64,000 nucleotides of DNA from Ignavibacteriota bacterium (GTDB lineage: Bacteria; Bacteroidota; Ignavibacteria; UBA10030; UBA6906). A program made the position numbers and the translations under genes. Shown here in pieces: positions 3,203 to 61,058 of the stretch; position 1 is the first letter of the stretch; each line of letters opens with the position of its first letter. The DNA lies in NCBI GenBank assembly GCA_963843525.1, contig CAWJKM010000002.1:209913-273912 (forward strand), read 5' to 3'. Under the pieces are notes generated by a model that did no database searches, was not told where the DNA came from, and saw only the letters and a list, made by a program, of their open reading frames with translations.

Positions 3203-3901
3203 ATGAAAACCTTGACCTTCTTATGTGCGATGGCGCTTCTTCCGGGCGCTGCGGCCGCGCAGGGAATCGCCGTTCAAAAAATCCAGGGCGATGTTCAGGT
3301 CCGGCACGGAGTGACAGAGCACTGGATGGCCGTGGCTGCGGGAGACATTTTGAAGCCGGACGATTCCATGAGGACGGGAGCGGACGGACGCGCCGAGATC
3401 GTTGCCGAGCGCGGCGGGATGCAAAAAAAGATCTCCCTCCCCTCGGAGGTGATCGTGGACATGGCGGACATCCGCGACCTGACCGCGGAAGAGCTCATGC
3501 TGAAGTTGACCATGGAACGCGTCCGTTCCTCACCGTATAAGTCCCGGGAGGATATTCCATCGCCCAATGCCGGTGTTGTGCATGGCGGGGACAAGGGGAC
3601 GGGTCCGGCGCTCCCTGCGAACGATCCCGTGCAGGGGACGATGCAATGGAACGGCGCACAGGTGCTGTTCGATAACGGATTCTATTCCACATGCGCGCTG
3701 AAAGGATTGGAGCTCTACCGACTCTATCCCGTAACCGCCAAAGATTACAGGCACCGCCTCATTGTCGCCGAGTCACTCGACCGCGCAAGCTTGCGCGGTG
3801 AGGCTCTCGCCGAGTACAACGCAATGCTTGGTCTTGAAGGGTTGACCCGGGCAGAGGTGGCGACAGTGAAGGAGGCAATGGCGGCTCTGCAGCAGCGTTG
3901 A
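3203..3901 (+). CDS. secreted FecR-domain protein
   Basis: Signal peptide MKTLTFLCAMALLPGAAAAQ, then QGDVQVRHG..W..GDILKPDDSMRTGADGRAEIV, which matches the FecR/DUF4974 fold pattern. ATG at 3203 lies inside the longer track ORF that begins at 3089. Confidence 0.55.
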   Translation: MKTLTFLCAMALLPGAAAAQGIAVQKIQGDVQVRHGVTEHWMAVAAGDILKPDDSMRTGADGRAEIVAERGGMQKKISLPSEVIVDMADIRDLTAEELMLKLTMERVRSSPYKSREDIPSPNAGVVHGGDKGTGPALPANDPVQGTMQWNGAQVLFDNGFYSTCALKGLELYRLYPVTAKDYRHRLIVAESLDRASLRGEALAEYNAMLGLEGLTRAEVATVKEAMAALQQR

Positions 3902-4601: not shown

Positions 4602-4674
4602 GAAGTAAGAAGTAAGAAGAAGGAAGTATGCGGTATGCAGTAGGCAGTAGGCAGAAAGAAGACAGACAGATGCG
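4591..4674 (+). repeat. degenerate heptanucleotide tandem repeat (TANGNAG-type, about 12 units) immediately 3' of the stop codon
   Basis: gtaagaa g|taagaag|taagaag|aaggaag|tatgcgg|tatgcag|taggcag|taggcag|aaagaag|acagaca|gatgcgg; 7-nt periodicity read by eye. Confidence 0.7.
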
Positions 4675-4685
4675 GCCTGGATGGG

Positions 4686-6284
4686 CTACATCGCTCCATC
4701 GGTTTCAAGCTTGTCAAAGGAGAAACCAAACAGTTTCGGGTTCTCCCCGATCACCGCCGCTGAAAAAATGTAGTACACATAGTCGTAGGTCTGGCGGGGG
4801 ATGCGATCGCGATAGGTCTGGAGGAGAGCCCAGAAATTCCGTTGCCTCGGGTTTTCCGGAAGTGCCCGGATCAGACTCCTGACCGCATTAGGCCCCCAGT
4901 TGTATGATGCCAGGACCAGCAATCCCGACGCCTGCGCTTCCGTGTCATAGATATCCCGGATGTATGCCGCCGCTGCCAGAGTCGACTTTTCCGCGAGGTG
5001 CCGTTCATCGCGTGGATCGGACCGCGCAATCTGCACAAGCGGCCCGGTCCTCAATCCGTACTGTATGGCTGTTGAAGGGATGAATTGCCACATCCCCTTG
5101 GCTATTCCAAATCTCGTGGGCGGTCCGCACAGGGTGGTGTCGAACCCGCTTTCCTGGAGCGCGAGATAGAAGAATTGCGGTGGGAGGTGCTCGTCGAGCA
5201 TGCTGTGGGTGATGAGACGGTCGTACCCCAATTCATGCGCGCGCTGAATGGAACTCGGAAGTCTGTCGGAGAGTCTCCACTCTCTGATGTAGCGTTCCAC
5301 CTCTTTGACGAATCCTTTCGGCATGTCGACCTCGCACTCTCCGAACAGGCGGGCCATCCTGTAAATCGTCAGGGTTTTTTCGTCAGAAGTCCCCTTGTAG
5401 ATGCCGAGCTCATCAACGTACTGGTCATAGCTTCTGTTCATCTGATTCAGTTTGTCCCAGTACCGGGACATCAATACACGTGCGGACGTGTCTCCCGATG
5501 CCTGGACTTCCCTTTCGAGGTTCCTGAATCCCAGTTCCAGCTCTTTCATCTGATAGAACACATCTTTCGCCTTTGTTTCGAGCTCCTGGTATTGCGTGTG
5601 CTTGTAATAGGCATAGGCGAACCCTACAAGTCCGACGACGGCGAGCACTGCAACGTACTTCCGGTATCTCTTCCTTTCGTATTTGCCTGCCCGTTCTATG
5701 AATTTCCTGACGAGTTCCTTGTGCTCCTCCACCGAGATGATGCGTGTTGACGCACGGATCACATTTCGCAATTGAGCGGGAAGACGCAATGCATGCCGGT
5801 GTTCATGTTCATCGACGGCCGGTCGTTCGATCCTGAATCCGAGGACAGGCCCCGATGGTCCCAAGCGCGCCGAAACTCCCGTGGCGAGGGGTGTTGCTTC
5901 GATGGCCTTTCCATCGAGATAGATCCCCTTTGAACCCTCAACCGTGCGCAGCCACCAGCAGTCGTCTTCGAAGACGACCTGTGCGTGATGCGGACTCACA
6001 TTATTGGATCCGATGGAAACGTCGCTGCGGGGATCGCTTCCGATCGAGAACGGTTTGTCGAACCGGAGAATGGTGGCGGGCGCACCCGGATGTTCCAGCG
6101 ACACGAAGACGATCGGCCGGTGTGTTGGCGCAGCGGTCTGCGGGCTATGATCCATGGGCGATGCTCCTGCAGACGGTTGCCGTGGGAGGGGTAGAAATGA
6201 ACCTGTCGAAAAATTAAGAATTGGGGGAGTAAGTCGCAAGAGAGGGAATATGCTTCGGATCGGGGACTGTTCCCTCGCACACAC
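4686..6284 (-). CDS. FHA-domain / transmembrane / SLT-domain lytic transglycosylase
   Basis: N-terminal FHA signature (FSIGSDPRSDVSIGSN...VSPHHAQVVFEDDCWWLRTVEGSKGIYLDG), one TM helix (VAVLAVVGLVGFAYAYY), C-terminal SLT motifs (ESGFD...IAKGMWQFIPSTA, ...ASYNWG). The true start may be the internal Met at about 6155. Confidence 0.7.
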   Translation of the reverse strand: MCAREQSPIRSIFPLLRLTPPILNFSTGSFLPLPRQPSAGASPMDHSPQTAAPTHRPIVFVSLEHPGAPATILRFDKPFSIGSDPRSDVSIGSNNVSPHHAQVVFEDDCWWLRTVEGSKGIYLDGKAIEATPLATGVSARLGPSGPVLGFRIERPAVDEHEHRHALRLPAQLRNVIRASTRIISVEEHKELVRKFIERAGKYERKRYRKYVAVLAVVGLVGFAYAYYKHTQYQELETKAKDVFYQMKELELGFRNLEREVQASGDTSARVLMSRYWDKLNQMNRSYDQYVDELGIYKGTSDEKTLTIYRMARLFGECEVDMPKGFVKEVERYIREWRLSDRLPSSIQRAHELGYDRLITHSMLDEHLPPQFFYLALQESGFDTTLCGPPTRFGIAKGMWQFIPSTAIQYGLRTGPLVQIARSDPRDERHLAEKSTLAAAAYIRDIYDTEAQASGLLVLASYNWGPNAVRSLIRALPENPRQRNFWALLQTYRDRIPRQTYDYVYYIFSAAVIGENPKLFGFSFDKLETDGAM

Positions 6285-47028: not shown

Positions 47029-49545
47029 ATGAAATCCTGTCTCATCGTCCTTCTTGTCTCGATTCCACTCGTGCTGCTCGCGCAGTCTGAGGGCACGATT
47101 CGCGTGAACCAGCTCGGCTACTCCTGCACCTCGGTAAAGATTGCGGTTGCCCTCCTTCTCGGAAATTTCCCTGGTGTGGATCATTTCGAAGCCTGCGATG
47201 CGGTAACGGATTCGGTGTCGTTCCGGTCGGACCGGATCCAACCGTCGGGCCCCTATGGTTCATTCGGCCGGACGTTGCGTCTCGATTTCTCCAGGTTTGA
47301 ACGGCCGGGCGGCTACTACCTCCAGCTTGGAGGAGTCCGATCGCCGGTGTTCCGCATCGGAGATGACGTGTATGACGGGGCGGCGGACTTCCTGCTGCGC
47401 TATATGCGCGAACAGCGATCCGGGTTCAACCCCTACCTCCGGGATTCATGTCACACTCATGACGGTTATGTCATCTATCATCCGGGACATGATTCGGACC
47501 ATGTCGACGTTGTCGGCGGATGGCACGATGCATCCGATTATCTGCAGTATGTGACGACTTCCGCAACGGCAGTCTACCAGATGCTCTTTGCGTATCAGCA
47601 CCATCCGGAGGTGTTTGGAGACCGTTATCGCGCTGACGGGCTTCCTGGCGCAAACGGGACCCCGGACATCCTGGATGAAGCGGCGTGGGGATTACGCTGG
47701 CTTCTCAAAATGAATCCCGCACCCGGCGTGCTGTACAATCAGATTGCCGATGATCGCGATCACCAGGGATTCCGCCTCCCGACGGAAGACCCGGTGGACT
47801 ATGGCAAAGGGAAGGAGCGTCCGGTGTATTTCTGCACCGGGAAACCCCAGGGGCTCTTTCAGTATGCCAATCGCAGTACGGGCCTTGCTTCCACCGCGGG
47901 CAAGTTCGCTTCGGCATTTGCGCTCGGGGCTGAGCTGTTTGCACTCCGCGACACGGCGTTTGCACGTGTGCTCACAGACCGCGCGCGTTCGGCATATCTC
48001 AGCGGCAAAGAGCATCCCGGAGTCTGTCAGACTGCACCGTGCAAGTCACCTTACTTCTACGAGGAAGACAACTGGGTCGACGATATGGAGCTTGCAGCCG
48101 CGCAGCTTGCGAAGACCACCCGTGATACTGCATATCAGAAAGATGCGCGGTTGTACGGCCGGAAGGAAACCGTGAACCCGTGGATGGGGCAGAATGCCGT
48201 CCGTCACTATCAGTGGTACCCCTTCATCAACCTCGGACATGTGCGGCTCGCCGAGGAAGACCCGCGTGCAAGGAAGGAGTTCATTGCGTATCTCAAAGAA
48301 GGGATCGAGCGGGTCAGACAAAGAGCGGAACATCAACCATTCCGTCTTGGGATCCCTTTCATCTGGTGTTCGAACAATTACGTGAGCGCGTTCCTCACGC
48401 AGCTCCAGTTGTATCGATCGCTCACCGGCGACAACTCGTACGCGGAATTCGAAGCGGCCGCACGCGATTGGCTTTTCGGCTGCAACCCGTGGGGCACAAG
48501 CATGATCATCGGTCTCCCACGCGGAGGTGTGTCGCCAAAGGACCCCCATTCGGCTTTTTCGCACCTCTATGGCTATCACATCGATGGCGGGCTCGTGGAT
48601 GGGCCGGTGAACGCGTCGATCTTCAACGCATTAAAAGGAATCCAGCTCTCACACCCCGATCTGTTCGCGGCATACCAGGGAGATGTTGTCTATCACGACG
48701 ATTGGGGCGACTACTCGTCGAATGAGCCGACGATGGACGGGACGGCCGGTTTGACCATGGCTCTGGCAGCGCTGGAAGATCATGGGAAGTCCGGGATCAA
48801 ACGGAGGAGAATGATATTCGACGAGGGAGGGATCATCCGCGGAGATACGACGGAAAAGGTCATCCATATGGTCTTTTCCGGCCACGAATTTGCCGATGGA
48901 GGAAAAACGATAGCCCGGGTGCTGGAAAGACACCATGGGAAAGCATCGTTTTTCTTCACGGGTGGGTTCTACCGCGACCCAAGGAATTCAACACTCATAC
49001 AGCTTCTCAAACGGGATGGCCAGTACCTTGGGCCGCATTCCGACGGGCATCTTCTGTATGCGCCGTGGGACCGGCGTGATTCGACGCTTCTGACGGAGGC
49101 CCGATTTCAGGAGGATGTCCGGAAGAACTTTGCGGCAATGGCGCGCTGCGGTATACCAGCGGCACACGCCAGATGCTTTCTGCCGCCGTTCGAGTGGTAC
49201 AACCGGACAGTCTCGGACTGGGCGAAACGTCTTGGACTCACATTGATCGACTTCACCCCCGGGACATACTCCAATGCCGACTACACCACCCCTTCGATGG
49301 GAGCGAAGTATCTGTCCAGCGACAGCATTCTCACAAGGATTCTCCGGTACGAATCGACGCACCGATCAGGACTAAACGGCTGTATTCTTCTGATGCACGT
49401 CGGGACGGATCCGGAACGGACGGACAAGCTATACAACCGGATGGACGGGCTTTTGACGGCGCTGGAGCGCAGGGGATACCGGTTCGAGACTATTCGTCGA
49501 CTGGCGTCCACCGCTCCAGAAGCTGCTCCGGGATCCCATCGATGA
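47029..49545 (+). CDS. GH9 family glycoside hydrolase fused to a C-terminal polysaccharide deacetylase (CE4-like) domain
   Basis: CelD_N-like Ig domain (RVNQLGY), GH9 motif GGWHDASDYLQY, (alpha/alpha)6 barrel. C-terminal ~250 aa show the NodB-like pattern (HMVFSGHEFADGG...GKASFFFTGGF...GPHSDGHL). Confidence 0.7.
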   Translation: MKSCLIVLLVSIPLVLLAQSEGTIRVNQLGYSCTSVKIAVALLLGNFPGVDHFEACDAVTDSVSFRSDRIQPSGPYGSFGRTLRLDFSRFERPGGYYLQLGGVRSPVFRIGDDVYDGAADFLLRYMREQRSGFNPYLRDSCHTHDGYVIYHPGHDSDHVDVVGGWHDASDYLQYVTTSATAVYQMLFAYQHHPEVFGDRYRADGLPGANGTPDILDEAAWGLRWLLKMNPAPGVLYNQIADDRDHQGFRLPTEDPVDYGKGKERPVYFCTGKPQGLFQYANRSTGLASTAGKFASAFALGAELFALRDTAFARVLTDRARSAYLSGKEHPGVCQTAPCKSPYFYEEDNWVDDMELAAAQLAKTTRDTAYQKDARLYGRKETVNPWMGQNAVRHYQWYPFINLGHVRLAEEDPRARKEFIAYLKEGIERVRQRAEHQPFRLGIPFIWCSNNYVSAFLTQLQLYRSLTGDNSYAEFEAAARDWLFGCNPWGTSMIIGLPRGGVSPKDPHSAFSHLYGYHIDGGLVDGPVNASIFNALKGIQLSHPDLFAAYQGDVVYHDDWGDYSSNEPTMDGTAGLTMALAALEDHGKSGIKRRRMIFDEGGIIRGDTTEKVIHMVFSGHEFADGGKTIARVLERHHGKASFFFTGGFYRDPRNSTLIQLLKRDGQYLGPHSDGHLLYAPWDRRDSTLLTEARFQEDVRKNFAAMARCGIPAAHARCFLPPFEWYNRTVSDWAKRLGLTLIDFTPGTYSNADYTTPSMGAKYLSSDSILTRILRYESTHRSGLNGCILLMHVGTDPERTDKLYNRMDGLLTALERRGYRFETIRRLASTAPEAAPGSHR

Positions 49546-50524
49546 AGCGCGAAGGCTTCGAAAGGATCATGCCTGTCTCTCGGTCGTAGATGTTGATGGG
49601 GTAGGTTATGAAGAGATGTTCCTTCGCCCGGGTGCACGCGACATACATCAGCCTTCGTTCCTCCTCCAGCGCATCATCATCTGCCGCCGCCCGCGTGACC
49701 GGGAACCTCCCTTCGAGCGCGTACATGACGAACACCGTATTCCACTCCAACCCCTTCGCGCTGTGAATCGTGGAGAGGATGAGCTTCTCATCGTCGTTTC
49801 CCGGGTCGCTGATGTCGGTGACGCTCTCCGTCGCCGGCTCAAGCGCGAGATCGGTCAGGAGCGTCGACAGAGAACGATACCGTTCGGTGATCTGCTGGAA
49901 CATCTCCAGATCCTTTGCCCGCTTGTGATGATCATCGTACCGGAGCTTAAAAATCGGCTCGTAGTATTGGAGGAGTCGTTGGACACGGTCGGCCGGCATA
50001 AGATGATCCGGTGCGGCATCGTTCAACGCCTCGAAGAGCAGGGCGACTTTGTCCGGGTACGTGATCGCATTGCCTTTGACTGCCGGGAGCCGGCTCGATG
50101 CCGGAGTGCCGGGAGCGAGGCGTTTCGAAAGGATGTCGTTGAGAACCTTCTCCGCCGTGCGGGGTCCCACCCCTTCGACCAGGAGGAGGATACGGTTCCA
50201 TGCGACCGCGTCGCGGGGGTTCTCCAGGACGCGAAGATAGGAAACGATATCCTTGATGTGCGCCGTCTCCATGAGCTTCAATCCGCCGTACTTGACGAAG
50301 GGGATGTTTGCTTTCGTGAGTTCCACTTCGAGATCAAACGAGAGATAGCCCGATCGGAAGAGGACGGCGATGTCGGTCAGTGGAATCCCCTCTTCGCGAA
50401 GTTCGAGGACGCGCTGGACGATGAACCGCGACTGGATATTTTCCGTCTGCGTAGTCACAATGGCCGGCAGTTCACCGCCGGTCCTGTGTGTGTACAGCGC
50501 TTTCGAGAACTTGTGCCTGGTCAT
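49490..50524 (-). CDS. UvrD/PcrA-family helicase, C-terminal half (domains 2A/2B, motifs V-VI)
   Basis: ...DIAVLFRSGY...IPFVKYGG...ILSTIHSAKGLEWNTVFV...EEERRLMYVACTRAKEHLFITY. The ATG overlaps the stop of the upstream methyltransferase gene (ATGA). Confidence 0.8.
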   Translation of the reverse strand: MTRHKFSKALYTHRTGGELPAIVTTQTENIQSRFIVQRVLELREEGIPLTDIAVLFRSGYLSFDLEVELTKANIPFVKYGGLKLMETAHIKDIVSYLRVLENPRDAVAWNRILLLVEGVGPRTAEKVLNDILSKRLAPGTPASSRLPAVKGNAITYPDKVALLFEALNDAAPDHLMPADRVQRLLQYYEPIFKLRYDDHHKRAKDLEMFQQITERYRSLSTLLTDLALEPATESVTDISDPGNDDEKLILSTIHSAKGLEWNTVFVMYALEGRFPVTRAAADDDALEEERRLMYVACTRAKEHLFITYPINIYDRETGMILSKPSRFIDGIPEQLLERWTPVDE

Positions 50525-51402
50525 TCTTTTCCCTTGCTCCACGGGTCCTTCGCGGCAGGCGGGAAAGCATCCCGGATTCGGCGCACGTACTCCGGCGTGG
50601 TGCCGCAGCATCCGCCCACGAATATCGCCCCGAGATCGATCCAGCGCCCGGCGAACGCCGCATACTCTTCCGGCTCCACGTCGCACTGCATCGTTGCCTC
50701 CCGTTCCTCGCCCGGCATGCCCACGTTCGCGTACACGCCGAACGGGAGCGATGCGGCCTTCCGCAGCCGTTCGACCGCGCGGTCGATGATACGCGGAGAC
50801 ATACAGTTTATCGAAAGGGCGTACGGGTGATACGGTTCGACGCGGCGGACAGCCTCCTCAAGAGGTTTGCCGTCATACAGGTTCCCGCCGGCATCGCACA
50901 GAAAGCTCACGATGGTCGGAACGCCGGTGGACACGGCAGCTTTACACGCCGCTTCCGCCTCTCTGGACGTCCCCATGGTCTCCAGCAGCAGCATATCCAC
51001 ACCTGCCTCTGCCAATCGTTGTGCGTGGAGGGCGTGTTCCGCGGCCAGCGCATCATCGGGCGGGACACGCTCGGGATGGTAGCAGTCTTCGAGCGGCCCC
51101 ATCGAGCCGGCGATCTTCACTGTTCTTCCGGGGAAGGCATTCCGTGCCTCGTTGGCCAGTGCAACGGCTAATTGCGTCAGCTCGGCGGAGCGGTCTGGGA
51201 GCCCCGCGCGCCGGAACGTCCTGGGTGTCGTGCGGAAAGTGTTGGCGGTGATCAGATCAGCGCCGGCAGCGATGTACTCTTCATGGAGTGTGCGGACCAA
51301 TCCCGGGTCGTCAACCAACGCGTTTGCCGACCAGAGCGGCAGATTCGTGTTCGCGCCTCTTCGCGCGAGCTCGGTCCCGATTGCGCCGTCAAGGATGAAC
51401 AT
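50521..51402 (-). CDS. homocysteine S-methyltransferase domain protein (MmuM/BHMT-like)
   Basis: MFILDGAIGTEL...LWSA..., AGADLITANTF, and zinc-binding GGCCGTTPEY. The track ORF extends to 51453 through a repeat tract; start taken at MFILDG. Confidence 0.8.
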   Translation of the reverse strand: MFILDGAIGTELARRGANTNLPLWSANALVDDPGLVRTLHEEYIAAGADLITANTFRTTPRTFRRAGLPDRSAELTQLAVALANEARNAFPGRTVKIAGSMGPLEDCYHPERVPPDDALAAEHALHAQRLAEAGVDMLLLETMGTSREAEAACKAAVSTGVPTIVSFLCDAGGNLYDGKPLEEAVRRVEPYHPYALSINCMSPRIIDRAVERLRKAASLPFGVYANVGMPGEEREATMQCDVEPEEYAAFAGRWIDLGAIFVGGCCGTTPEYVRRIRDAFPPAAKDPWSKGKE

Positions 51403-51403
51403 C

Positions 51404-51495
51404 GCTCTCTCCCTTTCCCCCCGTCCCCAGTCCCCAAGTCTCCCAGTCCCCAAGTCCCCAAGTCTCCCACTCTCCCCCTCAGTCCCTCGCCCTTC
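51404..51495. repeat. C-rich 7-8-nt periodic repeat (gtcccca / agtctccca units) at the helicase-N / methyltransferase junction
   Basis: gtcccca gtcccca agtctccca gtcccca agtcccca agtctccca ... Confidence 0.6.
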
Positions 51496-52471
51496 GTATG
51501 ATCTCGTTTGTCAAATCCAGTATCGGCTGCGTGCTCCGGTAATTTTCTTCGAGCTTCACGATCTTGCATTCCGTGAATTGATCCGGGAATTCGAGAATAT
51601 TCCGTACCGTCGCGCCGCGGAAGCTGTAGATCGACTGTGCATCGTCTCCCACGACCATGAGGTTGCCATGATGTGAGGCGAGGAGCCGGACAATCTCGGC
51701 TTGAATCAGGTTCGTGTCCTGATATTCATCCACCATGATATATTTGTAGCGCTCACACACCGTCGTCCTGACCGACTCCACATCGCGGAGCAGTTTCCGG
51801 AGATACAGAAGGAGATCGTCGTAGTCCATCAGGTTATGCTGGGACTTGTACTCTTCGAACGCCTTCTGGAGGACGAGGATCTCTTCGAGATAATTCTCGT
51901 AATGGGGGTATTCCTCCTGGAGAATCTCACGCACGGGGCGGACGGTGTTGACGGCTTTGGAGAAGATGTCGTAGAGCGTCTGTTTGCGCGGGAAGCGTTT
52001 CTCCTTCGTGTCGAACTTGAAACGTGTCCGGAGAAGGTTCACGACGTCTTCTGCGTCGCCCTGATCGAGGATACTGAACGACGAATCGAATCCGATGAGC
52101 GACGCGTACTGGCGGAGGAGGAGGTTCGCAAAAGAGTGGAACGTCCCGCCGGCGACGTTTTCGCATCGGGCATCGAGGAGCATGGAGGCGCGGCGGAGCA
52201 TTTCCTGCGCCGCCCGCCGGGTAAACGTCAGGAGCAGAATCGCTTCCGGTTTAACTCCGAGTTCCACAAGATACGCAACCCGGTAGACGATGGTCCTGGT
52301 TTTCCCCGTTCCCGCACCGGCGATAATCAGGTGCGGACCATTGACAGATGACACAGCTTCGTACTGGGCCGGATTGAGCTGGTTCCGGTAGTCGATCTGA
52401 AACGTGTGTTGACCGGGAGACTCCGCAGCCGGTTCGGGGTACGGGGTCTTTTTGAGAAGGTATTTTTTCAT
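51479..52471 (-). CDS. UvrD/PcrA-family helicase, N-terminal half (domains 1A/1B, motifs Q, I-IV)
   Basis: LNPAQYEAV, Walker A AGAGTGKT, Walker B MVDEYQDTN, VGDDAQSIYSFRGA, NYRST. The ORF ends inside the repeat tract a few residues after motif IV. Confidence 0.8.
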   Translation of the reverse strand: MKKYLLKKTPYPEPAAESPGQHTFQIDYRNQLNPAQYEAVSSVNGPHLIIAGAGTGKTRTIVYRVAYLVELGVKPEAILLLTFTRRAAQEMLRRASMLLDARCENVAGGTFHSFANLLLRQYASLIGFDSSFSILDQGDAEDVVNLLRTRFKFDTKEKRFPRKQTLYDIFSKAVNTVRPVREILQEEYPHYENYLEEILVLQKAFEEYKSQHNLMDYDDLLLYLRKLLRDVESVRTTVCERYKYIMVDEYQDTNLIQAEIVRLLASHHGNLMVVGDDAQSIYSFRGATVRNILEFPDQFTECKIVKLEENYRSTQPILDLTNEIIRRARD

Positions 52472-52504: not shown

Positions 52505-53518
52505 TCATAATTTCTTTGCAGGATATTCCTCGAGCGTATCGAGGATCCCCTCGATTGTCTTCGGCGAATTCCCTTCGGCGCGGTTGTTGACGTACACATA
52601 GAGTGTCTTCTTCTCTGCGACGCAGCGATGGACAGCTTCCACGATGCCCTCCCGCAGTTCCGGATTCTCCTCACGGATCCGGTCGTACGGTTTGAATGTC
52701 TGCACCGCCTGTTCATACGTCCTTCCCGGTTTGAGAAGGGCGCGGACGACGGAGAAGTCGGTGGTCAGCACGCCGGACACTTCCAGTTGCCGGATCACGG
52801 GCGGCATACGCGTCCAGTTGTTCAGCACATGGGCGACTCCGTGCGACCGGAGCATCGTGAGATAATTTTCCTTGAGGTACTCTGCATTCCGAATCTCCAC
52901 GGCGTACGAGTACCCCGGGGGGAGCTTTGACAGGAATTCTTCGAGGAGGTCGACGAACCGTTCATCGGTCAAACCCGAGTTGGGATAAAACGTCGAGAAC
53001 TCAAAGATAATCGCTCCGCGCTTGCTGTGGAGTGCGTCGAGCGGGCGAAGGAATGCGTCTTCGAAGAGGCGGGCATTGAGAAAGTCGGGATTTTCCGTGC
53101 CTGCCTGGGCTCCATAACGGGCGATGTTCGGATAGCGGCGTACCGTAATCCGGTCGGTCACTTTCAGGGCAAGGACGAATCCATCCGGCGTATCGTCATG
53201 GATGCGCTCCATTTTCTCGAGGTCGGGAAAGTCGTACAGGGCGAAGTCGGCGCAAACGGTCGGGAAGACCGTGGCATACTCCGCAAGGCACCCCTGTTCG
53301 AAGTTTCGCTGCGAGGAATATTTTTTGTTGTAGACCATCCCTCTCCACCCCGGGTACTTCCAGGAGGAGGACCCGAACAGAATTCCCCGCGAGGTCCATG
53401 CCGCCAGGCGGTTCCGGTTTTTTTCCACATACTCCGAGGAAGGGAACTTCGCTGTTTCGGGAAACAACGGGAGGGTCGCATCCTCCGGTTTTGGCTTCCT
53501 TGTTCTGGGCATAGTCAA
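52505..53518 (-). CDS. DUF72 (YecE-like) family protein
   Basis: ...SSSWKYPGWRGMVY...AEYATVFPTVCADFALYDFP... is typical of DUF72. Confidence 0.6.
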   Translation of the reverse strand: MTMPRTRKPKPEDATLPLFPETAKFPSSEYVEKNRNRLAAWTSRGILFGSSSWKYPGWRGMVYNKKYSSQRNFEQGCLAEYATVFPTVCADFALYDFPDLEKMERIHDDTPDGFVLALKVTDRITVRRYPNIARYGAQAGTENPDFLNARLFEDAFLRPLDALHSKRGAIIFEFSTFYPNSGLTDERFVDLLEEFLSKLPPGYSYAVEIRNAEYLKENYLTMLRSHGVAHVLNNWTRMPPVIRQLEVSGVLTTDFSVVRALLKPGRTYEQAVQTFKPYDRIREENPELREGIVEAVHRCVAEKKTLYVYVNNRAEGNSPKTIEGILDTLEEYPAKKL

Positions 53519-53603: not shown

Positions 53604-54461
53604 TCAGCCGCCGACCTGGATTCCGGTGAGAATCACAAACACCGACCAGAGGATCCAGAGAGCGAAGACGAGGACCAGGATCTTGTTCAGATCTTTCCGG
53701 AAAAGGCGGGAGAGCCCGATGCTGACGACGACAAGGTCCCAGATGGTGAAGAAATTGACCTTGCTCAGTGCGACATCCAGCTTATTCTGCACAGAGAACC
53801 CGTTGAGGACAAAGAGCGCGAGATTGGGACCTGCGTGGAGGTGGTCGAAGGCGATCGCCATGATGGTTGTGACGATCGATTCCAGGCTCCCGATGAAGAA
53901 TGTGAGACCGACAATTTCCACCACTTTCATATAGGGTGCTGATACCTTCATCACCGTCCTTCCGAGCAGCCAGTAGACCAGGCAGACAAGGAAGAGGGCG
54001 ATGGGGGTCACGATCAGGAGCGCGCCGCCTGTGGTGATCATCATCCAGGGTGAAGCGGGGTCGGTGAACTTTTCCATCTGCTCGCGTGCCTGGTCGGCCT
54101 GTTCGGGAGTCATTTTCCCGCTCTGGATCGACTCCTGGAACCGCTGTTCCGTGGATTCGCGTATCTGGGTTCGTAACTGGTCGGCAAGCGACGGGTTCCG
54201 GAGCATCATCTGTGACATCCCGAACGAAACAACGATGAAGATGATGAGAGGAATGACCCAGTTCGAAGGAGTGGAAGCGGTATCCCGGACGTTGTCGAAG
54301 AGCTCCCCCGGTGAAGCGAAGACATTGGTCAGTTTTTCTGTGAAGGACATCGGCTTGACGGTGGATTCGCCTGTTGGCGTCGTGGTAGATAGGTCATCCA
54401 TGGATGGCTCCTTTGATGGTTGGGAACAGCCCAACGTAGCGAAAACCCCTTTGAGAATCAA
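53604..54461 (-). CDS. Yip1-like multi-pass membrane protein
   Basis: Hydrophilic N-terminal third followed by five or more TM helices. Confidence 0.4.
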   Translation of the reverse strand: MILKGVFATLGCSQPSKEPSMDDLSTTTPTGESTVKPMSFTEKLTNVFASPGELFDNVRDTASTPSNWVIPLIIFIVVSFGMSQMMLRNPSLADQLRTQIRESTEQRFQESIQSGKMTPEQADQAREQMEKFTDPASPWMMITTGGALLIVTPIALFLVCLVYWLLGRTVMKVSAPYMKVVEIVGLTFFIGSLESIVTTIMAIAFDHLHAGPNLALFVLNGFSVQNKLDVALSKVNFFTIWDLVVVSIGLSRLFRKDLNKILVLVFALWILWSVFVILTGIQVGG

Positions 54462-54497
54462 TGGGTTTTAGAGACGACATTTTTGACGTCTCCCCAC

Positions 54498-54526
54498 TTG
54501 ACAAGACGACAAATTTGTCGTATCGT
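54498..54526 (+). promoter_or_regulatory. sigma70-like promoter (TTGACA-17-TATCGT) with a perfect 14-bp palindrome CGACAAATTTGTCG in the spacer, upstream of dinB
   Basis: ttgaca at 54498-54503, 17-nt spacer, tatcgt at 54521-54526; palindrome at 54507-54520; read directly. Confidence 0.5.
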
Positions 54527-54556
54527 ACCTGTGAACTCACCCCCTGCCCCTCTCTT

Positions 54557-55714
54557 ATGACTCTCTTCATCCATCTTGATCTCGATTGCTTCTTCGCCGC
54601 CGTCGAGACCGTCCTGCATCCCGAACTTCGCGGTGTTCCGCTCTGTGTCGGGGGGCAGCGGGGAGGACGGGGGATTGTGACCTGTCCGAATTACGAGGCG
54701 CGCGCGTATGGTGTCCGGACGGCCATGTCGGTGCGTGCGGCGGAACAGCTCCTGCCGCGGGGCGCCGTGTTCCTCCGGGGGAACCATCACCTGTATGGTG
54801 AATATTCACGGCGTGTCATGACGGTTCTGGAATCGTTTACGCCCGAAGTGCGACAACGGAGCATCGATGAAGCGCTGATGGAAGTCGGGGGATGCCTTCA
54901 CTTCTGGGGCCACGATCCGGCCCGCATGGGGCAGGCGATCAAGGACCGGGTCCGTACGGAAACGGGCCTGACGATCTCCGCCGGTGTTGCGCCCAACCCC
55001 CTGTGCGCGAAGATCGCAGCCGGATGGCGTAAACCCGACGGTCTCGTGGTGATCCCTCATGGCGAAGTACAGGAATTCCTTGCGCCGTTGCCGGTGGACG
55101 TTGTGCCCGGAATCGGCAAAAAGACCGCGCCGCGTCTTGCCATGCACGGCATCCGGACAGTGAGTGATCTGATTGCCCGGCGGCCGCCCCGCGAGAGCTG
55201 GCTCGGTTCGCTGCTCCGGGGATTGCTTGATGAAACGGGAAGTTCAGGACGGCACGACGCTGATGCTGTTGAGCACTCGATCTCGCGCGACAGGACATTC
55301 GGTCAGGATACTGCCGACCGGGAACAGATCGAATCGACGCTCTTCCTGCTGACCGAGCGTTGCTGCAAAACCCTCCGGGTCGAGGGGCTCGCGGCATCGA
55401 CGGTGACCCTGAAGGTACGTTTCGCGGATTTCACCACCGTGCAGAAGCAGGAAACGCTGCCCGCGGCGGTGGTGAACGAAGAGCAGATCTTCGCGGCCGT
55501 CCTGCTGCTGCTGGGCGACCTTCTTCCGCCCTGGCGGTTTGTGCGTCTTGTCGGGGTGAAGGTGTCCCATCTTTCCCCGCTGGAAGGACAGCAACTCACA
55601 CTCGATGCCGGGACGTCGGAACGACTGCATGAGCTGCACCGCCGGGTGGATGCGCTGCAGGAACGGTTTGGAGAAGCGAGCGTGCGGTGGGGAAGAGGGG
55701 TGGGGACATTTTAA
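54557..55714 (+). CDS. dinB: DNA polymerase IV (Y-family)
   Basis: Y-family motifs (HLDLDCFFAAVE, SIDEA...) and length about 385 aa. Start taken at MTLFIHLD; the track ORF begins at 54461. Confidence 0.85.
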   Translation: MTLFIHLDLDCFFAAVETVLHPELRGVPLCVGGQRGGRGIVTCPNYEARAYGVRTAMSVRAAEQLLPRGAVFLRGNHHLYGEYSRRVMTVLESFTPEVRQRSIDEALMEVGGCLHFWGHDPARMGQAIKDRVRTETGLTISAGVAPNPLCAKIAAGWRKPDGLVVIPHGEVQEFLAPLPVDVVPGIGKKTAPRLAMHGIRTVSDLIARRPPRESWLGSLLRGLLDETGSSGRHDADAVEHSISRDRTFGQDTADREQIESTLFLLTERCCKTLRVEGLAASTVTLKVRFADFTTVQKQETLPAAVVNEEQIFAAVLLLLGDLLPPWRFVRLVGVKVSHLSPLEGQQLTLDAGTSERLHELHRRVDALQERFGEASVRWGRGVGTF

Positions 55715-55929: not shown

Positions 55930-56994
55930 TTGTCAATTGGTCTTTATCGGCGGCCATCTCCTCTGGAAGAGGGGAAGAGTGGTATCCCAATCCCCCGGCA
56001 ACGTGAAGAACAACTCGCGCTTCGATTTGCCGGACTTACGCTTGTTCACGAGAATCGAATATTATTGTGGACGGGTCTGAGGAGAAACCAGCGCACACTC
56101 GTCGGATCAAGGGAAGGGCGGATGCTTTCCGGTATTGCACAAAATATCTTCCCGTACGTCGGTGCGTGGGCACGGCATGGCGTCTTCATCGCGCTTGCGT
56201 CGGGGGATGCAGCGGCAAGAGGCGGACTGAATGACGGCGACGAGGCGGCGCTCTTCGGCGTGGCGCGGGTGGAGGTGCCGCCGTACGGAGCGGTGCCGCG
56301 TTCTTCACGCATCACCGCGGATGCCGTTGATGTGGTGATTGAAGATGAGACGCTGGTCTACCGCTTCCCGTACCATTACCCGGACCGCGCGCACCGGGGG
56401 GAAATGAACGCCGACTTCCTGAATCCGCAGCGTTTTCTCGATCGCGTGGCGCCGGTGCTTGACCTGTTCGGAGAACGGGCGCGATTGGTGATGCTGCGGC
56501 CGGCACCGCTCTACAGGACGGAGGAAATCGCGTTTGAGGAGATCCTGGAGCGTCTCGACCGGTTTCTCGCGCACCTGCCGGCGGCATACCGGTATGTGCT
56601 TGAACCGCCCGCTCCCATGGTTCTCCGGCGCGAGTATTTTGATTGTCTTCACGCACGGGGTGTGGTGCATATGTTCAGTGAGGGGGAAGCGCTCTTTCGA
56701 GCGTTGCCATCGGTGGGGGAACAGCTTTTCATCCCCGGGGCGGTCGCCCCACCGTTCTGCGTCGTGCGGAGCGGTTTTCCCGGGGAGATCCCCGGCATGC
56801 CGCATCGGCGGTTTGATGGAGCGCTCCGGAGACAGGGATGGTACGATGCGGTGTGCCGGTGTCTTGTTGAGCATCTGCCGGTGTATCTGTTTGTTGACGA
56901 CGGGACGAACCCTCTCGACTCGCTGATGGCGTTGATGGAAATGCTGAACGAGGACCTGGCGAAACGGTCGGTGCTGCGGCAGAACGCAGCCTAG
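55930..56994 (+). CDS. divergent DUF72-like protein (paralog of 52505..53518)
   Basis: The central and C-terminal regions align with the other DUF72 protein (ADFLNPQRFLDRVAPVLDLFGERARLVMLRPAPLY... versus PDFLNARLFEDAFLRPLDALHSKRGAIIFEFSTFY...). The N-terminus is degenerate and the start is uncertain. Confidence 0.5.
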   Translation: MSIGLYRRPSPLEEGKSGIPIPRQREEQLALRFAGLTLVHENRILLWTGLRRNQRTLVGSREGRMLSGIAQNIFPYVGAWARHGVFIALASGDAAARGGLNDGDEAALFGVARVEVPPYGAVPRSSRITADAVDVVIEDETLVYRFPYHYPDRAHRGEMNADFLNPQRFLDRVAPVLDLFGERARLVMLRPAPLYRTEEIAFEEILERLDRFLAHLPAAYRYVLEPPAPMVLRREYFDCLHARGVVHMFSEGEALFRALPSVGEQLFIPGAVAPPFCVVRSGFPGEIPGMPHRRFDGALRRQGWYDAVCRCLVEHLPVYLFVDDGTNPLDSLMALMEMLNEDLAKRSVLRQNAA

Positions 56995-57002
56995 AAATTT
57001 TA

Positions 57003-57365
57003 CTGTAGGTCGGGTCGCTGACCCGACCAATTCAGACGGGAGACACTGCATGGCCGGCGGGACGGGTCTGGCGACCCGTCCTACAAATGGACACTCTGTA
57101 GGTCGGGTCGCTGACCCGACCAATTCAGACGGGAGACACTGCGTAGCCGGCGGGACGGGTCTGGCGACCCGTCCTACAAATGGGCACTCTGTAGGTCGGG
57201 TCGCTGACCCGACCATCTCAGACGGGAGACACTGCGTAGCCGGCGGGACGGGTCTGGCGACCCGTCCTACAAATGGACACTCTGTAGGTCGGGTCGCTGA
57301 CCCGACCATCTCAGACGGGAGACACTGCGTAGCCGGCGGGACGGGTCTGGCGACCCGTCCTACAG
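57003..57365. repeat. 93-bp tandem repeat, about 3.9 copies, each unit carrying two perfect 9-bp-stem hairpins (REP/BIME-like)
   Basis: Units begin at 57003, 57096, 57189 and 57283. Hairpins are GGTCGGGTCgctGACCCGACC and GGACGGGTCtggcGACCCGTCC. The array sits directly 5' of a RAYT-like transposase remnant. Confidence 0.85.
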
Positions 57366-57389
57366 ATCTTCGTACGTACCCATTGACAA

Positions 57390-57622
57390 ACATACTTTCT
57401 TCGTTCAAGAAGTACACTGCTCGACGAGCAAATAAGCTGCTCAGCCGTCAGGGAGCATTCTGGCAAGATGAATCATACGACCATCTCATCCGCGCCGGGG
57501 AAGAGCTTGAACGGACGATGTGGTACGTAGTGAACAATCCCGTGAAAGCGAAACTCGCAAAGGAATGGCAGGACTGGGAATACACGTACGTGAAGCCAGA
57601 CCTTCTGAATTTCGCTTTTTGA
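57390..57622 (+). pseudogene. truncated REP-associated tyrosine transposase (RAYT, IS200-like Y1 transposase): C-terminal ~80 aa only
   Basis: ...FKKYTARRANKLLSRQGAFWQDESYDHLIRAGEELERTMWYVVNNPVKAKLAKEWQDWEYTYV matches the RAYT C-terminus (Y..NPV catalytic Tyr region). The HUH N-terminal half is absent, and the upstream part of the track ORF (57050-57389) is just a translation of the REP array. Confidence 0.65.
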
Positions 57623-57644
57623 ATTTGGAGTTGGATTTTGGCCT

Positions 57645-58349
57645 ATGACTTCCTCCGTCTCTCTTCGCCCCTCCACCGCAGTGCCATATGCGGCGCTCGT
57701 CAGTCAGTTCCATGCCGAGCCGCACGGCAAGCTCTATTGCCTGCATGGCGACGCGCTGGCGTTCCGCGTCGCCCTTTCGGCCGCATCGCAGGCAATCCTG
57801 CGCGGGATGACGGTCGCGCTGGTGGACGGAGCCAACAGGTTTGATGCGTATTTCATCGCGGAATTTGCGCGCCACGTCGAGATGCGGGGCGGGCCGCCGC
57901 CGGGCGAATTGCTCAACCGGATCTTCGTGTCGCGCGCCTTCACCTGCTACCAGATGGAGGCGGTGGTGACGGAACGGCTTCCAAAATTTCTCGACAGAAC
58001 GGGCGCCAGGGTCGCGGTGCTTTTTGGACCGCTCGATACGTTCTACGACGACCAGGCCCCGTTCTTCGAAGTGAAAGCGGGCGTCGGACGGATGATCGAG
58101 GCACTCCAACGGTTGCGGGAGCACCAGATCGGCGTGCTTGTCGCTTCGCAGGATGTGCGCCTTGCCTCCGGGGAACGGAGCAGCCTCTTTCCGCGCTTCG
58201 CCGCGGCGATGGACGGTGTCTATACGGTGGAGCAACAGGAGGGCAAGCTCCTGATGCATGCTCAGGCTGCTCCGGTCATGAAACCGCCGCGGCGGGTCAA
58301 TAACCACACACCGCTCCGGATTCATGAGAGGAGTACCGGAAAGCTCTGA
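57645..58349 (+). CDS. RecA-fold protein without a Walker A motif (ImuA/SulA-like)
   Basis: RecA-like strand/helix pattern (...GMTVALVDGANRFD..., LNRIFVSRAFTCYQMEAVV, ARVAVLFGPLD) with no GxxxxGK[ST]. Its stop overlaps the next start (TGATG). Confidence 0.4.
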   Translation: MTSSVSLRPSTAVPYAALVSQFHAEPHGKLYCLHGDALAFRVALSAASQAILRGMTVALVDGANRFDAYFIAEFARHVEMRGGPPPGELLNRIFVSRAFTCYQMEAVVTERLPKFLDRTGARVAVLFGPLDTFYDDQAPFFEVKAGVGRMIEALQRLREHQIGVLVASQDVRLASGERSSLFPRFAAAMDGVYTVEQQEGKLLMHAQAAPVMKPPRRVNNHTPLRIHERSTGKL

Positions 58350-58666
58350 TGACACAAGACGTCGAACGACGAGGAGACGCTATGGGACGTACAGTGCCGA
58401 CATTCACGATGGTGCTCCAGCAGGAGATCGATAGCTGGGGAAAATTCCGGCGTGCGCTGCGGAAGGAAGACCAGGATGCGATGGACGATCTCTTCCGGTC
58501 CGCCCAGTTGCAGCTTGCCGGCAGTGCGTATGCGGCACGGCCGATTCCGTTCGAAAGCATCGCCATGGCCATGCTGATCGCGCAGCAGCGCCGCATCAGT
58601 GAGCTTGAACGCCGGCTGTCAAAAGAGGAACAGCGCGTGAGCCTTGTTACCACAGATCGTCCCTGA
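58349..58666 (+). CDS. small hypothetical protein (105 aa) in an operon between the RecA-fold protein and PolB
   Basis: Translationally coupled ORF; predicted C-terminal coiled-coil (AQQRRISELERRLSKEEQR). Confidence 0.4.
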   Translation: MTQDVERRGDAMGRTVPTFTMVLQQEIDSWGKFRRALRKEDQDAMDDLFRSAQLQLAGSAYAARPIPFESIAMAMLIAQQRRISELERRLSKEEQRVSLVTTDRP

Positions 58667-58727
58667 GCGAAGGACATGGCTCCATGGTTGATGATCAACC
58701 GACAAGTGAATTGAAGATGGTGGTAGC

Positions 58728-61058
58728 ATGACCGGCTGGCTCTTTGATCTCTATCCTTCTCCGCGCGGCATCACGATCTGGCTGATGGACAATGACGGAC
58801 GCAAATACCGCTGCACCCACCCGTTCGTCCCCTCGTTCTATCTGCATGTCGATCGCGCGGGCGCGGAACGTGCGGCGAAGATTGTCGAACGCTTCCCCTT
58901 CCGGGTGTCGTTCCACGCCGACCGCCGGCGGGAGATCTATACGGATGAGGAGTGGGAGGTCTACCGCGTCGATGTGCACGATACGTTGCACTTCAAACAG
59001 GTGGTCCAGGCGCTCGAACGGCATTTCCCGCATTTCGTGTTCTTCGATTCCGATATTGCGGTCCAACAGCTGTTCCTCTACACCAGCGGATTGTTCCCGC
59101 TCGCGTTCGGCGACTACACCCTTGATGAGGAGGGGACGCTGCTCCGGTGGGATCTCCGTGACGTGTACGACGCGATGGACTATACGCTTCCTCCGCTGGT
59201 GATGATGACGCTGAAGAACAAACCCGATTTCGTCTCGACGAAACACCGGAAGAGCTTTCAGCTGGAGGTGACCTACGACGGATCGACGTACGCGCTGGAG
59301 CACCATGACCCGGCGGAGATCCTGCACGCCCTCGAGCGTCACCTCACCCGGTGCGATCCGGACATCATCATGACGGAGCATGGCGATGCGATTCTCCTCC
59401 CCCTTCTGACGCGTCTTTCGGCGGAGGAGAAGGTGCCGGTGTCGTTCAACCGTGACGTTTCGGTGGGATACAACACGTCCAAAGCGTCGAGCTATTTCTC
59501 GTACGGGAAGATCGTGCATAAGGAAGGCGCGTTTGAACTCGCCGGGCGCTGGCACCTCGATCTGGAAAACTCCTTCATGATGAGCGAAGCGAGCCTGGAC
59601 GGCGTGGTGGAGATTGCGCGGCTGACACAGCTGCCTGTCCAGCACCAGTCACGCGCGACCATCGGCTCCGCCCTCTCTTCAATGCAGCTCTCCTGGGCGG
59701 AGCGCCACGGCTATCTCATCCCCGCGAAGAAGCGGGAGCCGGAGGAATTCAAGACCGCGAGCACGCTGCTGCTCGCCGACCGCGGCGGCGTGATTTTTCA
59801 GCCGCTCCTGGGGTTCCATGAGGAAGTGGCGGAACTCGACTTCGTCTCGATGTATCCGACGATCATGGTGGAACACAACGTATCGCCCGAAACGGTCAAC
59901 TGCCGGTGCTGCCACAACGCACGCGTTCCCGAGCTCGGGTACACGATCTGCGAACGCAGGGAGGGGATCGTCCCTGCAACGCTCCGGACGGTTGTCCGGC
60001 GACGAGGCATATATAAGAAAAAGAAGAAAGCGCTCAAAGCGGCGAACGATCCCTCCTGGATGCTGTTCGACCGACGTCAGAATGCCCTGAAATGGATGCT
60101 GGTCACCTGCTTCGGCTACCTCGGCTACAAGAATGCGCGGTTCGGCCGCATCGAGGCGCACGAAACAGTCAATGCGTTTTCCCGCGATGCAATCCTCCAC
60201 GCGAAGGAAGCAGCGGAAGCGCAGGGGTATCAGTTCATCCATGCCATCGTCGACTGCATGTGGATCAAGAAGCCGGGAGCGACACAGGCCGACTATGAAC
60301 GGCTGGCCGTGCAGATCAGTGAAGAGGTTGGCATCGACCTGTCGCTCGAAGGGATCTACTCCTGGATCCTCTTCCCTTCCTCGAAAATCGATCCCCTTCT
60401 GCCGACCGCGAATCGCTATGTCGGCTGGTACAAAAACAACGAAATCAAGATCCGCGGCATCGAAGTGCGCAGAAGGGATACGCCGGTCTTTATCAAACGC
60501 ATGCAGGGAGAGCTGCTGAAACTGATGGGTGAGGCGAAAAGCGTCAGCGGCATCGAAACCATGGTCCCGCTGCTTGTGGCTAAGGCAGGGGAGTTTGTGG
60601 GGATACTTCGCAAGGGCAGGGCGGATCCGCTGGAACTGGTGATCCACTGCCATCTCCTGCGTGAACCAGAAGAGTATACCACCAATACCGTCAATGCTTC
60701 CGCCGCCAAAGCCCTTGCAGAGGCGGGCATTCATCTTGCCGCGGGGGAAATGGTGGACTATGTCGTCGTGGATGCCACAGGGAAAAGGCGTCCCGAAAAG
60801 GCCCGCCCGATGGCACTGTATGCGCTGGAGGATGGCTACGACATTGAATTCTATACGAAACTTGCTCTGAAAGCGATAGAAACGCTCTTGCTGCCGTTCG
60901 GTTACCCGGTGTCCCGTCTTGCGCAAATCTTTCATGTGAATGCGGGAAAGCCCGAACGCGGGAGAAAACGCACCGATACCGGCCAGCTGTCGCTGTTTGA
61001 ACTCCACGATTCCATCACCCAGAAGATCGCTTTCGACAAGGAACAGTTCGCACCGTGA
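58728..61058 (+). CDS. family-B DNA polymerase (Pol II-like) with a degenerate 3'-5' exonuclease motif I and an altered motif C
   Basis: Motif A LDFVSMYPTIM; motif B region ALKWMLVTCFGYLGYKN; motif C region EAQGYQFIHAIVDCMW (YGDTDS replaced by HAIVDC). The Exo I DxE region aligns to VMMTLKNK. Confidence 0.8.
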   Translation: MTGWLFDLYPSPRGITIWLMDNDGRKYRCTHPFVPSFYLHVDRAGAERAAKIVERFPFRVSFHADRRREIYTDEEWEVYRVDVHDTLHFKQVVQALERHFPHFVFFDSDIAVQQLFLYTSGLFPLAFGDYTLDEEGTLLRWDLRDVYDAMDYTLPPLVMMTLKNKPDFVSTKHRKSFQLEVTYDGSTYALEHHDPAEILHALERHLTRCDPDIIMTEHGDAILLPLLTRLSAEEKVPVSFNRDVSVGYNTSKASSYFSYGKIVHKEGAFELAGRWHLDLENSFMMSEASLDGVVEIARLTQLPVQHQSRATIGSALSSMQLSWAERHGYLIPAKKREPEEFKTASTLLLADRGGVIFQPLLGFHEEVAELDFVSMYPTIMVEHNVSPETVNCRCCHNARVPELGYTICERREGIVPATLRTVVRRRGIYKKKKKALKAANDPSWMLFDRRQNALKWMLVTCFGYLGYKNARFGRIEAHETVNAFSRDAILHAKEAAEAQGYQFIHAIVDCMWIKKPGATQADYERLAVQISEEVGIDLSLEGIYSWILFPSSKIDPLLPTANRYVGWYKNNEIKIRGIEVRRRDTPVFIKRMQGELLKLMGEAKSVSGIETMVPLLVAKAGEFVGILRKGRADPLELVIHCHLLREPEEYTTNTVNASAAKALAEAGIHLAAGEMVDYVVVDATGKRRPEKARPMALYALEDGYDIEFYTKLALKAIETLLLPFGYPVSRLAQIFHVNAGKPERGRKRTDTGQLSLFELHDSITQKIAFDKEQFAP

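Follow-up and report, generated by a model that had tools for sequence, protein, structure and literature searches.

The question raised by this locus is whether a perfect palindrome embedded in the promoter of dinB serves as the operator of a DNA-damage response and, if so, which repressor would occupy it. The palindrome belongs to a 64-kb stretch of Ignavibacteriota DNA with a GC content of 56%, which was analysed as a whole and is referred to below as the window. A preliminary description of this DNA had proposed an operator-in-promoter arrangement typical of repressor control of a damage gene, to be recognized either by a lineage-specific LexA or by a different repressor. Here, we addressed how the palindrome is built into its promoter, whether the same block recurs in relatives and beside which genes, and which protein is the best candidate for binding to it.

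The dinB promoter and its gene environment

The promoter is exactly the one that had been proposed, TTGACA and TATCGT being separated by 17 nt (positions 54497-54526 read cTTGACAagACGACAAATTTGTCGTATCGT) and matching 10 of the 12 consensus positions of sigma-70-type hexamers; a scan of 2.5 kb gave two promoter-like sites, this one included, where 0.7 would be expected. The palindrome ACGACAAATTTGTCGT, hereafter O1, begins 2 nt past the -35 hexamer, and its final T doubles as the opening base of the -10 element, so that it fills the spacer and overlaps the -10 as had been noticed. The perfection of its symmetry was also correctly perceived, but its length was given as 14 bp instead of 16 bp, and a second copy, the imperfect ACGACATTTTTGACGT (O2), which forms part of a 21-nt direct repeat and precedes O1 by 32 bp, was missed. 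O1 and O2 are the sole matches to the 16-mer with three or fewer mismatches in the 64 kb (chance expectation 0.31), two or more such matches being obtained in 4 of 100 shuffles of the window, and a scan of the window with a position weight matrix (PWM) detected no further site scoring comparably to this pair (Table 1).

A perfect palindrome by itself is unexceptional in the window: 11 palindromes of at least 14 bp (4.1 expected) and 6 of at least 16 bp (0.98 expected from shuffling) were counted, the other five of the longer class being situated at 3782, 5962, 31658, 32313 and 50771. The significance of O1 is derived not from the perfection of its symmetry, but from its placement, its paired copy and its conservation across genomes.

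Table 1. Predicted promoter and operator elements and the neighbouring genes, in window coordinates
Feature	Position	Strand	Basis of assignment
-35 hexamer TTGACA, promoter of the dinB operon	54498-54503	+	read from sequence
-10 hexamer TATCGT	54521-54526	+	promoter scan, conserved AT in relatives
Predicted primary operator O1, perfect 16-bp palindrome	54506-54521	both	palindrome and cross-genome conservation
Predicted secondary operator O2, imperfect copy	54474-54489	both	mismatch search, repeat, PWM
dinB, DNA polymerase IV, first gene downstream of O1	54557-55714	+	Pfam IMS, IMS_HHH, IMS_C; NCBIfam Pol IV
Divergent DUF72-like gene (orf354)	55930-56994	+	weak DUF72 match (E=0.012), BLAST link to DUF72 paralogue, synteny
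RadA/RecA-fold protein without canonical Walker A (ImuA-like)	57645-58349	+	family profile, orthologues under operator
Conserved 94-aa protein	58382-58666	+	always between RadA-like gene and polB
B-family DNA polymerase (polB), last gene of the cassette	58728-61058	+	Pfam DNA_pol_B
Yip1/YknW-family membrane protein gene, divergent from dinB	53604-54401	-	Pfam Yip1; ATG 54401 as in public 265-aa gene call
Putative yip1 promoter, TTGATT and TACGTT, 17-nt spacer	54461-54456 and 54438-54433	-	read from sequence
DUF72 gene downstream of yip1	52505-53518	-	Pfam DUF72, synteny
UvrD-type helicase, split	49496-52471	-	beyond DUF72 gene

Attribution of the promoter to dinB was borne out by its product (385 aa), which contains IMS domains (E=6e-42) and is recognized as DNA polymerase IV by NF002677 at its cut-off. 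The start of the gene was assigned to the ATG at 54557 (MTLFIHLDLDCFF) since homologues begin at the equivalent position, the N-terminus aligning with those encoded in the related loci L135 and L137; the ORF start set mechanically at 54461, by which the operator would become coding sequence, was rejected on this ground. Further downstream follow the DUF72-like gene, the RadA-like gene, the gene for the 94-aa protein and polB, and because L126 and L137 carry the same order from dinB to polB, these five genes are suggested to constitute one operon, split in the window by a REP/RAYT insertion between the DUF72-like and RadA-like genes that is absent from both these relatives. Within the insertion, a REP-like tandem array with units of approximately 90 bp (about 56990-57622) runs into a remnant ORF, the C-terminus of which (FWQDESYDHLIR) looks RAYT-like by reading and matched no family.

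The profile of the RadA-like family matches RadA/Rad51 structures of the PDB at E=9e-5, and the 94-aa protein retains 53-88% identity across loci; neither of the two reached any Pfam or NCBIfam family at cut-off, one weak match to a 13-residue repeat falling below it. A long minus-strand ORF at 57486-58355, together with similar ORFs in GC-rich loci, was rejected as an antisense artefact over the RadA-like gene. In its logic the cassette of RadA-like, 94-aa and polB genes (57645-61058) resembles imuA-imuB-dnaE2, and it is found under the operator in many relatives. The window also encodes a protein combining PEGA and DUF5683, a rhomboid protein with DUF6576 and many glycoside hydrolases, a gene content that points to the FCB group.

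On the opposite side, the same region had been taken for the divergent promoter of the Yip1-like gene. The divergent gene is indeed present, but it appears to possess a conserved promoter of its own, read 12 nt beyond O2 and recurring in L050 and L137, and since this promoter is separate and lies beyond O2, co-regulation of yip1 by the two operators is at most possible. Past the DUF72 gene that follows yip1, the UvrD-type helicase is divided into an N-terminal half (51482-52471) and a UvrD_C half (49496-50560), both on the minus strand, with a complete homocysteine S-methyltransferase gene (50527-51402, minus strand) in between; the order of N-half, methyltransferase and C-half is kept in L050/L127 and L137.

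Recurrence of the operator block among relatives

The exact 16-mer was searched in reference genomes represented by one genome per species, which yielded at least 120 matches, to be regarded as a sample; among those listed, 62 of the at least 120 fall well within ORFs of unrelated taxa, a result to be expected by chance. Seven of the matches listed come from metagenome-assembled genomes (MAGs) labelled Ignavibacteriae, Ignavibacteriales or Bacteroidota (L003, L005, L040, L050, L064, L067 and L107), and all seven are positioned directly upstream of dinB, polB, the RadA-like gene or yip1. In these loci and in the window, that is in eight genome loci, the block cTTGAC(A/T)-2nt-ACGACAAATTTGTCGT-AT is identical, the GC content ranging from 37 to 63% and the flanks of the block being unalignable; when six dinB promoters were aligned, the segment from the -35 element through the start of the -10 was the sole invariant block. 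It had been stated beforehand that a palindrome unique to this locus would speak against an operator and that recA, lexA, uvrA and imuA-like genes are the places to look for further copies. The block was found at dinB and polB of relatives as well, and an identical one stands upstream of their genes for the ImuA-like RadA-fold protein and for a LexA-like S24 protein.

A metagenome scan with TTGACNNN joined to the 16-mer retrieved 27 contigs, in every one of which the site adjoins dinB, polB, the RadA-like cassette, a DUF72 gene, a radical-SAM gene or the S24 regulator gene. The operator was observed directly upstream of RadA-like orthologues in L040, L050, L067, L123, L128, L139, L142 and L144, and 24-37 nt upstream of polB in L003, L064 and L107. 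Invariance of the 24-bp block among the loci retrieved by pattern is given by construction; this bias does not extend to the c that precedes and the AT that follows the block, nor to the second site or the gene content. The AT following O1, which was part of no search pattern, is nearly invariant in 32 unique promoters, and the register of -35, O1 and -10 is conserved across 36 promoters. A second site is located exactly at -32, -31, +31 or +32 bp from O1 in 32 of 36 distinct promoters, being upstream in those of dinB, RadA-like and DUF72 genes and downstream in those of polB.

Loci retrieved by means of the regulator protein described below are unbiased with respect to the DNA pattern, and in them the centre of O1 is variable. 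Intergenic regions were read for six of ten such contigs (within L148-L155), representing four distinct sequences, and all of them display the same -35/O1/-10/O2 layout with TTGAC(A/T) 2 nt before O1, which occurs there as ACGACATTTATGTCGT, ACGACATAAATGTCGT and ACGACATTTATGTCAT, i.e., according to the pattern ACGACA-WWWW-TGTC(G/A)T. From these variants the consensus ACGACA-WWWW-TGTCGT was therefore deduced.

Two side observations concern the gene content. At L145 (2784-3796) an operator-bearing promoter precedes a radical-SAM gene with a CxxxCxxC motif, and a radical-SAM gene was also reported in the LexA regulon of Balneolaeota (PMC7739468). DUF72 paralogues recur in the putative regulon after yip1, after dinB and as the divergent partner of the regulator gene (both DUF72 genes of Table 1; L121, L125, L132, L136, L147 and L148-L155), hinting at some role of DUF72 in the response to DNA damage.

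On this comparative evidence, which supports both operator function and the content of the regulon, the palindrome of the dinB promoter is a real and strongly conserved predicted repressor site, and the block conserved in relatives favours the repressor control of a damage gene that had been proposed from the operator-in-promoter geometry. It is hardly credible that the palindrome is instead a product of chance, a replication iteron, a recombination site or the end of a mobile element, given that over 30 diverged promoters maintain its register with -35 and -10, that the genes downstream of it invariably belong to the same DNA-repair families, and that a partner site is found at a fixed distance of 31-32 bp. 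The thought of such an element is fed by the six perfect palindromes of at least 16 bp counted in the window, by the REP array situated 2.5 kb from the site, and by two viral contigs (L165, 207-279; L168, 3554-3614) in which three copies or near copies of the 16-mer, 22-33 bp apart, are clustered in AT-rich DNA with no regulon gene near them. The REP units, however, differ in sequence from the palindrome, and a search of 54200-54800 against Rfam matched no RNA family. As to the viral clusters, they could be iterons or phage operators of the same specificity; because they occur without regulon genes, the 16-mer is not exclusive to the regulon.

A candidate regulator with XRE and S24 domains

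No transcription-factor candidate for the operators is encoded within the 64-kb window. In relatives, a gene for a 216-aa protein combining an XRE-type HTH with an S24 domain (XRE-S24) is found on the far side of the operators, in divergent orientation, in 8 of 27 contigs retrieved by pattern and in all 10 retrieved by protein, its start codon being about 10 nt beyond O2; this gene is absent from the window and presumably present elsewhere in the window's own genome. The protein matches HTH_3/Phage_CI_repr over residues 5-70 (HTH_3 E=7e-9) and Peptidase_S24 over residues 97-208 (E=5e-26), the closest solved structures by sequence being P22 C2 (N-terminal domain, E=1e-5) and LexA (C-terminal domain, E=2e-14). 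The alignment shows invariant equivalents of the E. coli LexA residues Gly85, Ser119 and Lys156, with VPAG in place of VAAG, and the Ala-Gly bond is kept in all homologues but one, that of L141, which has Gly-Gly. Residues 31-42, which form the recognition-helix stretch TRTLQRWEKGEQ of the N-terminal domain, show no variation among 18 homologues other than at a single Gly, itself nearly invariant, and this constancy matches that of the operator half-site. The AlphaFold2 model, built from a shallow alignment, is of too low confidence (pLDDT 54) to be of use.

At E<=1e-10 the family comprises 793 proteins; the best 120 of these 793 share no less than 77% identity with the query, originate from MAGs of Ignavibacteriae and Bacteroidota and are named XRE-family regulator, S24 peptidase or LexA. 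A divergent DUF72 gene stands beside the regulator gene in 10 of 10 protein-retrieved contigs, and the order DUF72 / regulator / DUF1015 / aminotransferase recurs across contigs, with genes for TonB receptors and polyphosphate kinase as further conserved neighbours. Assignment of XRE-S24 as a CI/C2 repressor of a prophage was rejected in view of this conserved chromosomal synteny and of the lack of phage genes within +/-10 kb of the regulator gene in the protein-retrieved contigs examined. In L141 the regulator gene is divergent from a RadA-like cassette, the same as that of the window. A conserved promoter of the form TTGACA-17-TAnnnT, identified by reading, is embedded in the DUF72 leader and directed towards the regulator gene; relative to the predicted start site, O1 would begin at about +8 of the regulator transcript, and O1 and O2 together would span about +8 to +62. 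With operators so positioned at its own promoter, the regulator would presumably be subjected to autoregulation.

The putative regulon, including dinB, polB, the ImuA-like gene, a helicase and a radical-SAM gene, has a content typical of LexA regulons, and LexA motifs are known to diverge widely (PMC8565304); both points would suit a lineage-specific LexA box bound by a canonical winged-helix LexA whose gene lies elsewhere in these genomes. We hold this to be very unlikely. None of the operators was found to have a canonical LexA gene nearby, and the S24 protein that is linked to them fails the canonical LexA model: TIGR00498 matches it over residues 72-215 only and scores 76.9 bits, below the cut-off of 110.95, and the N-terminus of the protein is HTH_3 and not the winged helix PF01726. 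Besides, ACGACA-N4-TGTCGT matches none of the LexA-type motifs with which it was compared (those in PMC8565304 and PMC7739468 and other known boxes), in line with the first impression that it fits none of the familiar classes of LexA box. The initial choice between a lineage-specific LexA and a different repressor thus finds support and a candidate, an XRE-type HTH fused to S24 that is not a canonical LexA.

Several occurrences of the 16-mer outside the repair-gene setting bear on another alternative, namely that the operators are real but bound by some other factor, such as a small XRE protein or a HicB-type antitoxin, XRE-S24 being just a member of the regulon. In L023 (Psychroserpens, Flavobacteriia) the exact 16-mer at 4647-4662, preceded by TTGACAAC, is found 53 nt upstream of a gene for an 81-aa XRE HTH protein, and in L092 (a Bacteroidia MAG) that at 5834-5849 is found 9 nt upstream of another 81-aa XRE HTH gene; the L023 protein is 39% identical over 36 residues to the N-terminal domain of the 216-aa regulator and shares with it R-(T/S)-(I/L)-Q-R in the recognition helix. 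In the IMG/VR contigs L158/L177 and L159/L169 (GC about 40%) the 16-mer precedes hicA-hicB toxin-antitoxin operons whose HicB carries an HTH. Together with the lack of a candidate regulator in the window, these cases lend the alternative some weight, yet we consider it rather improbable. Repeated linkage to the operators is seen for no DNA-binding gene other than that of XRE-S24, whose recognition helix is as invariant as the half-site, and the promoters of hicA-hicB retain the -35/-10 register with a second site 32-33 bp away; this -35/O1/-10 plus O2 geometry, shared with repair genes, fits regulon membership better than a separate regulator. The hicA-hicB operons may be SOS-controlled toxin-antitoxin modules, or their sites may be bound by HicB itself.

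Linkage of its gene to the operators strongly suggests XRE-S24 as the binding protein, and we regard it as probable that O1 and O2 are operators of an SOS-type regulon in an Ignavibacteria-related lineage, the repressor of which would be this 216-aa dimeric protein with an XRE/P22-C2-type HTH and a LexA-type S24 domain. According to the mechanism proposed, a repressor dimer on O1 would fill the space between -35 and -10 of the dinB promoter and exclude RNA polymerase, and a second dimer, bound to O2 at a distance of three helical turns, would be exposed on the same face of DNA, cooperative binding being probable. Upon DNA damage, RecA filaments would stimulate self-cleavage of the repressor at Ala-Gly, the repressor would leave DNA, and derepression would permit transcription through dinB and the DUF72-like, RadA-like, 94-aa and B-family polymerase genes. 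In this scheme it is DNA binding, cooperativity, RecA-dependent cleavage and damage induction that we infer.

A broader proposal, to which we assign even chances, is that the SOS response of Ignavibacteria is run by an independently assembled repressor, a P22-C2-type HTH joined to a LexA-type S24 domain, on ACGACA-N4-TGTCGT operators set out in obligate pairs, with three helical turns between the members. The core target of this repressor would be an undescribed translesion cassette (RadA-fold protein without canonical Walker A, 94-aa protein and B-family polymerase), a functional counterpart of imuA-imuB-dnaE2, and several DUF72 paralogues would belong to the regulon, which, if true, would imply a role for DUF72 in DNA repair. 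A text search of the literature for GACAAATTTGTC returned only unrelated papers, for example on GraR of S. aureus, and no description of an Ignavibacteria SOS system or of the motif was found in the searchable literature. Mapping of the SOS response has proceeded one phylum at a time, and to this map the locus would contribute an operator, a candidate regulator and a regulon for Ignavibacteria. It would also provide a further example in which the role of LexA has passed to an S24 protein equipped with a phage-type HTH, bearing on how often the SOS network was rebuilt by convergent evolution, and it flags DUF72, RadA-like and 94-aa proteins and the bacterial B-family polymerase as putatively damage-inducible, giving leads for families without a known role.

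Relation to known repressors of the S24 type

With canonical LexA and the SOS box the proposed system shares its whole logic (a self-cleaving S24 repressor, an operator placed over the promoter, autoregulation and a translesion/repair regulon), all of which is deduced here from sequence. The differences concern the DNA-binding part, a multi-helical XRE HTH instead of the PF01726 winged helix, and the operators, which here are obligate pairs 31-32 bp apart. As in many imuA-imuB-dnaE2 cassettes, the regulator gene is sometimes divergent from the mutagenesis cassette, in our set in L141. Lambdoid repressors (lambda CI, P22 C2, 434) are built according to the same two-domain plan and likewise use a 16-bp operator with half-sites one helical turn apart, paired operators suggesting cooperative dimers in the present system too; operator spacing in lambda is about 24 bp, compared with 31-32 bp here. 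Unlike the genes of lambdoid repressors, that of XRE-S24 is located in chromosomal synteny with housekeeping genes, and its putative targets are repair genes of the host.

Non-LexA proteins of the S24 family co-opted as regulators of the DNA-damage response are exemplified by HdiR and UmuDAb. FddR of Francisella is also a non-LexA S24-family damage regulator, which controls itself and a divergent gene as a self-contained unit (PMC13148647); it recognizes GTG-N11-CAC and belongs to another lineage, whereas the regulon proposed here is larger, with dinB, the polB cassette, DUF72 and radical-SAM genes distributed over many promoters. The motif of Balneolaeota LexA (PMC7739468) differs from ACGACA-N4-TGTCGT as well.

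The non-canonical LexA of Bacteroidetes, a neighbouring lineage of the FCB group, follows the same plan, an S24 domain with Ala-Gly and a Ser-Lys dyad fused to the phage-type HTH PF01381, and it is autoregulated and controls dinB and other translesion genes through palindromic operators (PMC8565304). Its motif is GGA-N5-TCC or CTAA-N5-TTAG with a 5-bp spacer, against ACGACA-N4-TGTCGT with an even 4-bp centre here, and the Bacteroidetes proteins have a C-terminal helical extension, whereas the 216-aa regulator ends with the S24 domain. In BLASTP comparison with Bacteroidetes sequences taken from the supplement of PMC8565304, the S24 domain was 27% identical (30 bits) to the P. actiniarum protein, as against 36% (69 bits) to E. 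coli LexA, and it gave no match to the non-canonical LexA of S. agarivorans. For the Bacteroidetes family itself no BLASTP homologues were reported outside Bacteroidetes, Ignavibacteria being unmentioned (PMC8565304, Sanchez-Osuna et al. 2021). By BLASTP, motif and extension the candidate regulator does not group with this family, and the predicted system is a member neither of it nor of the FddR group, though these two resemble it most closely.
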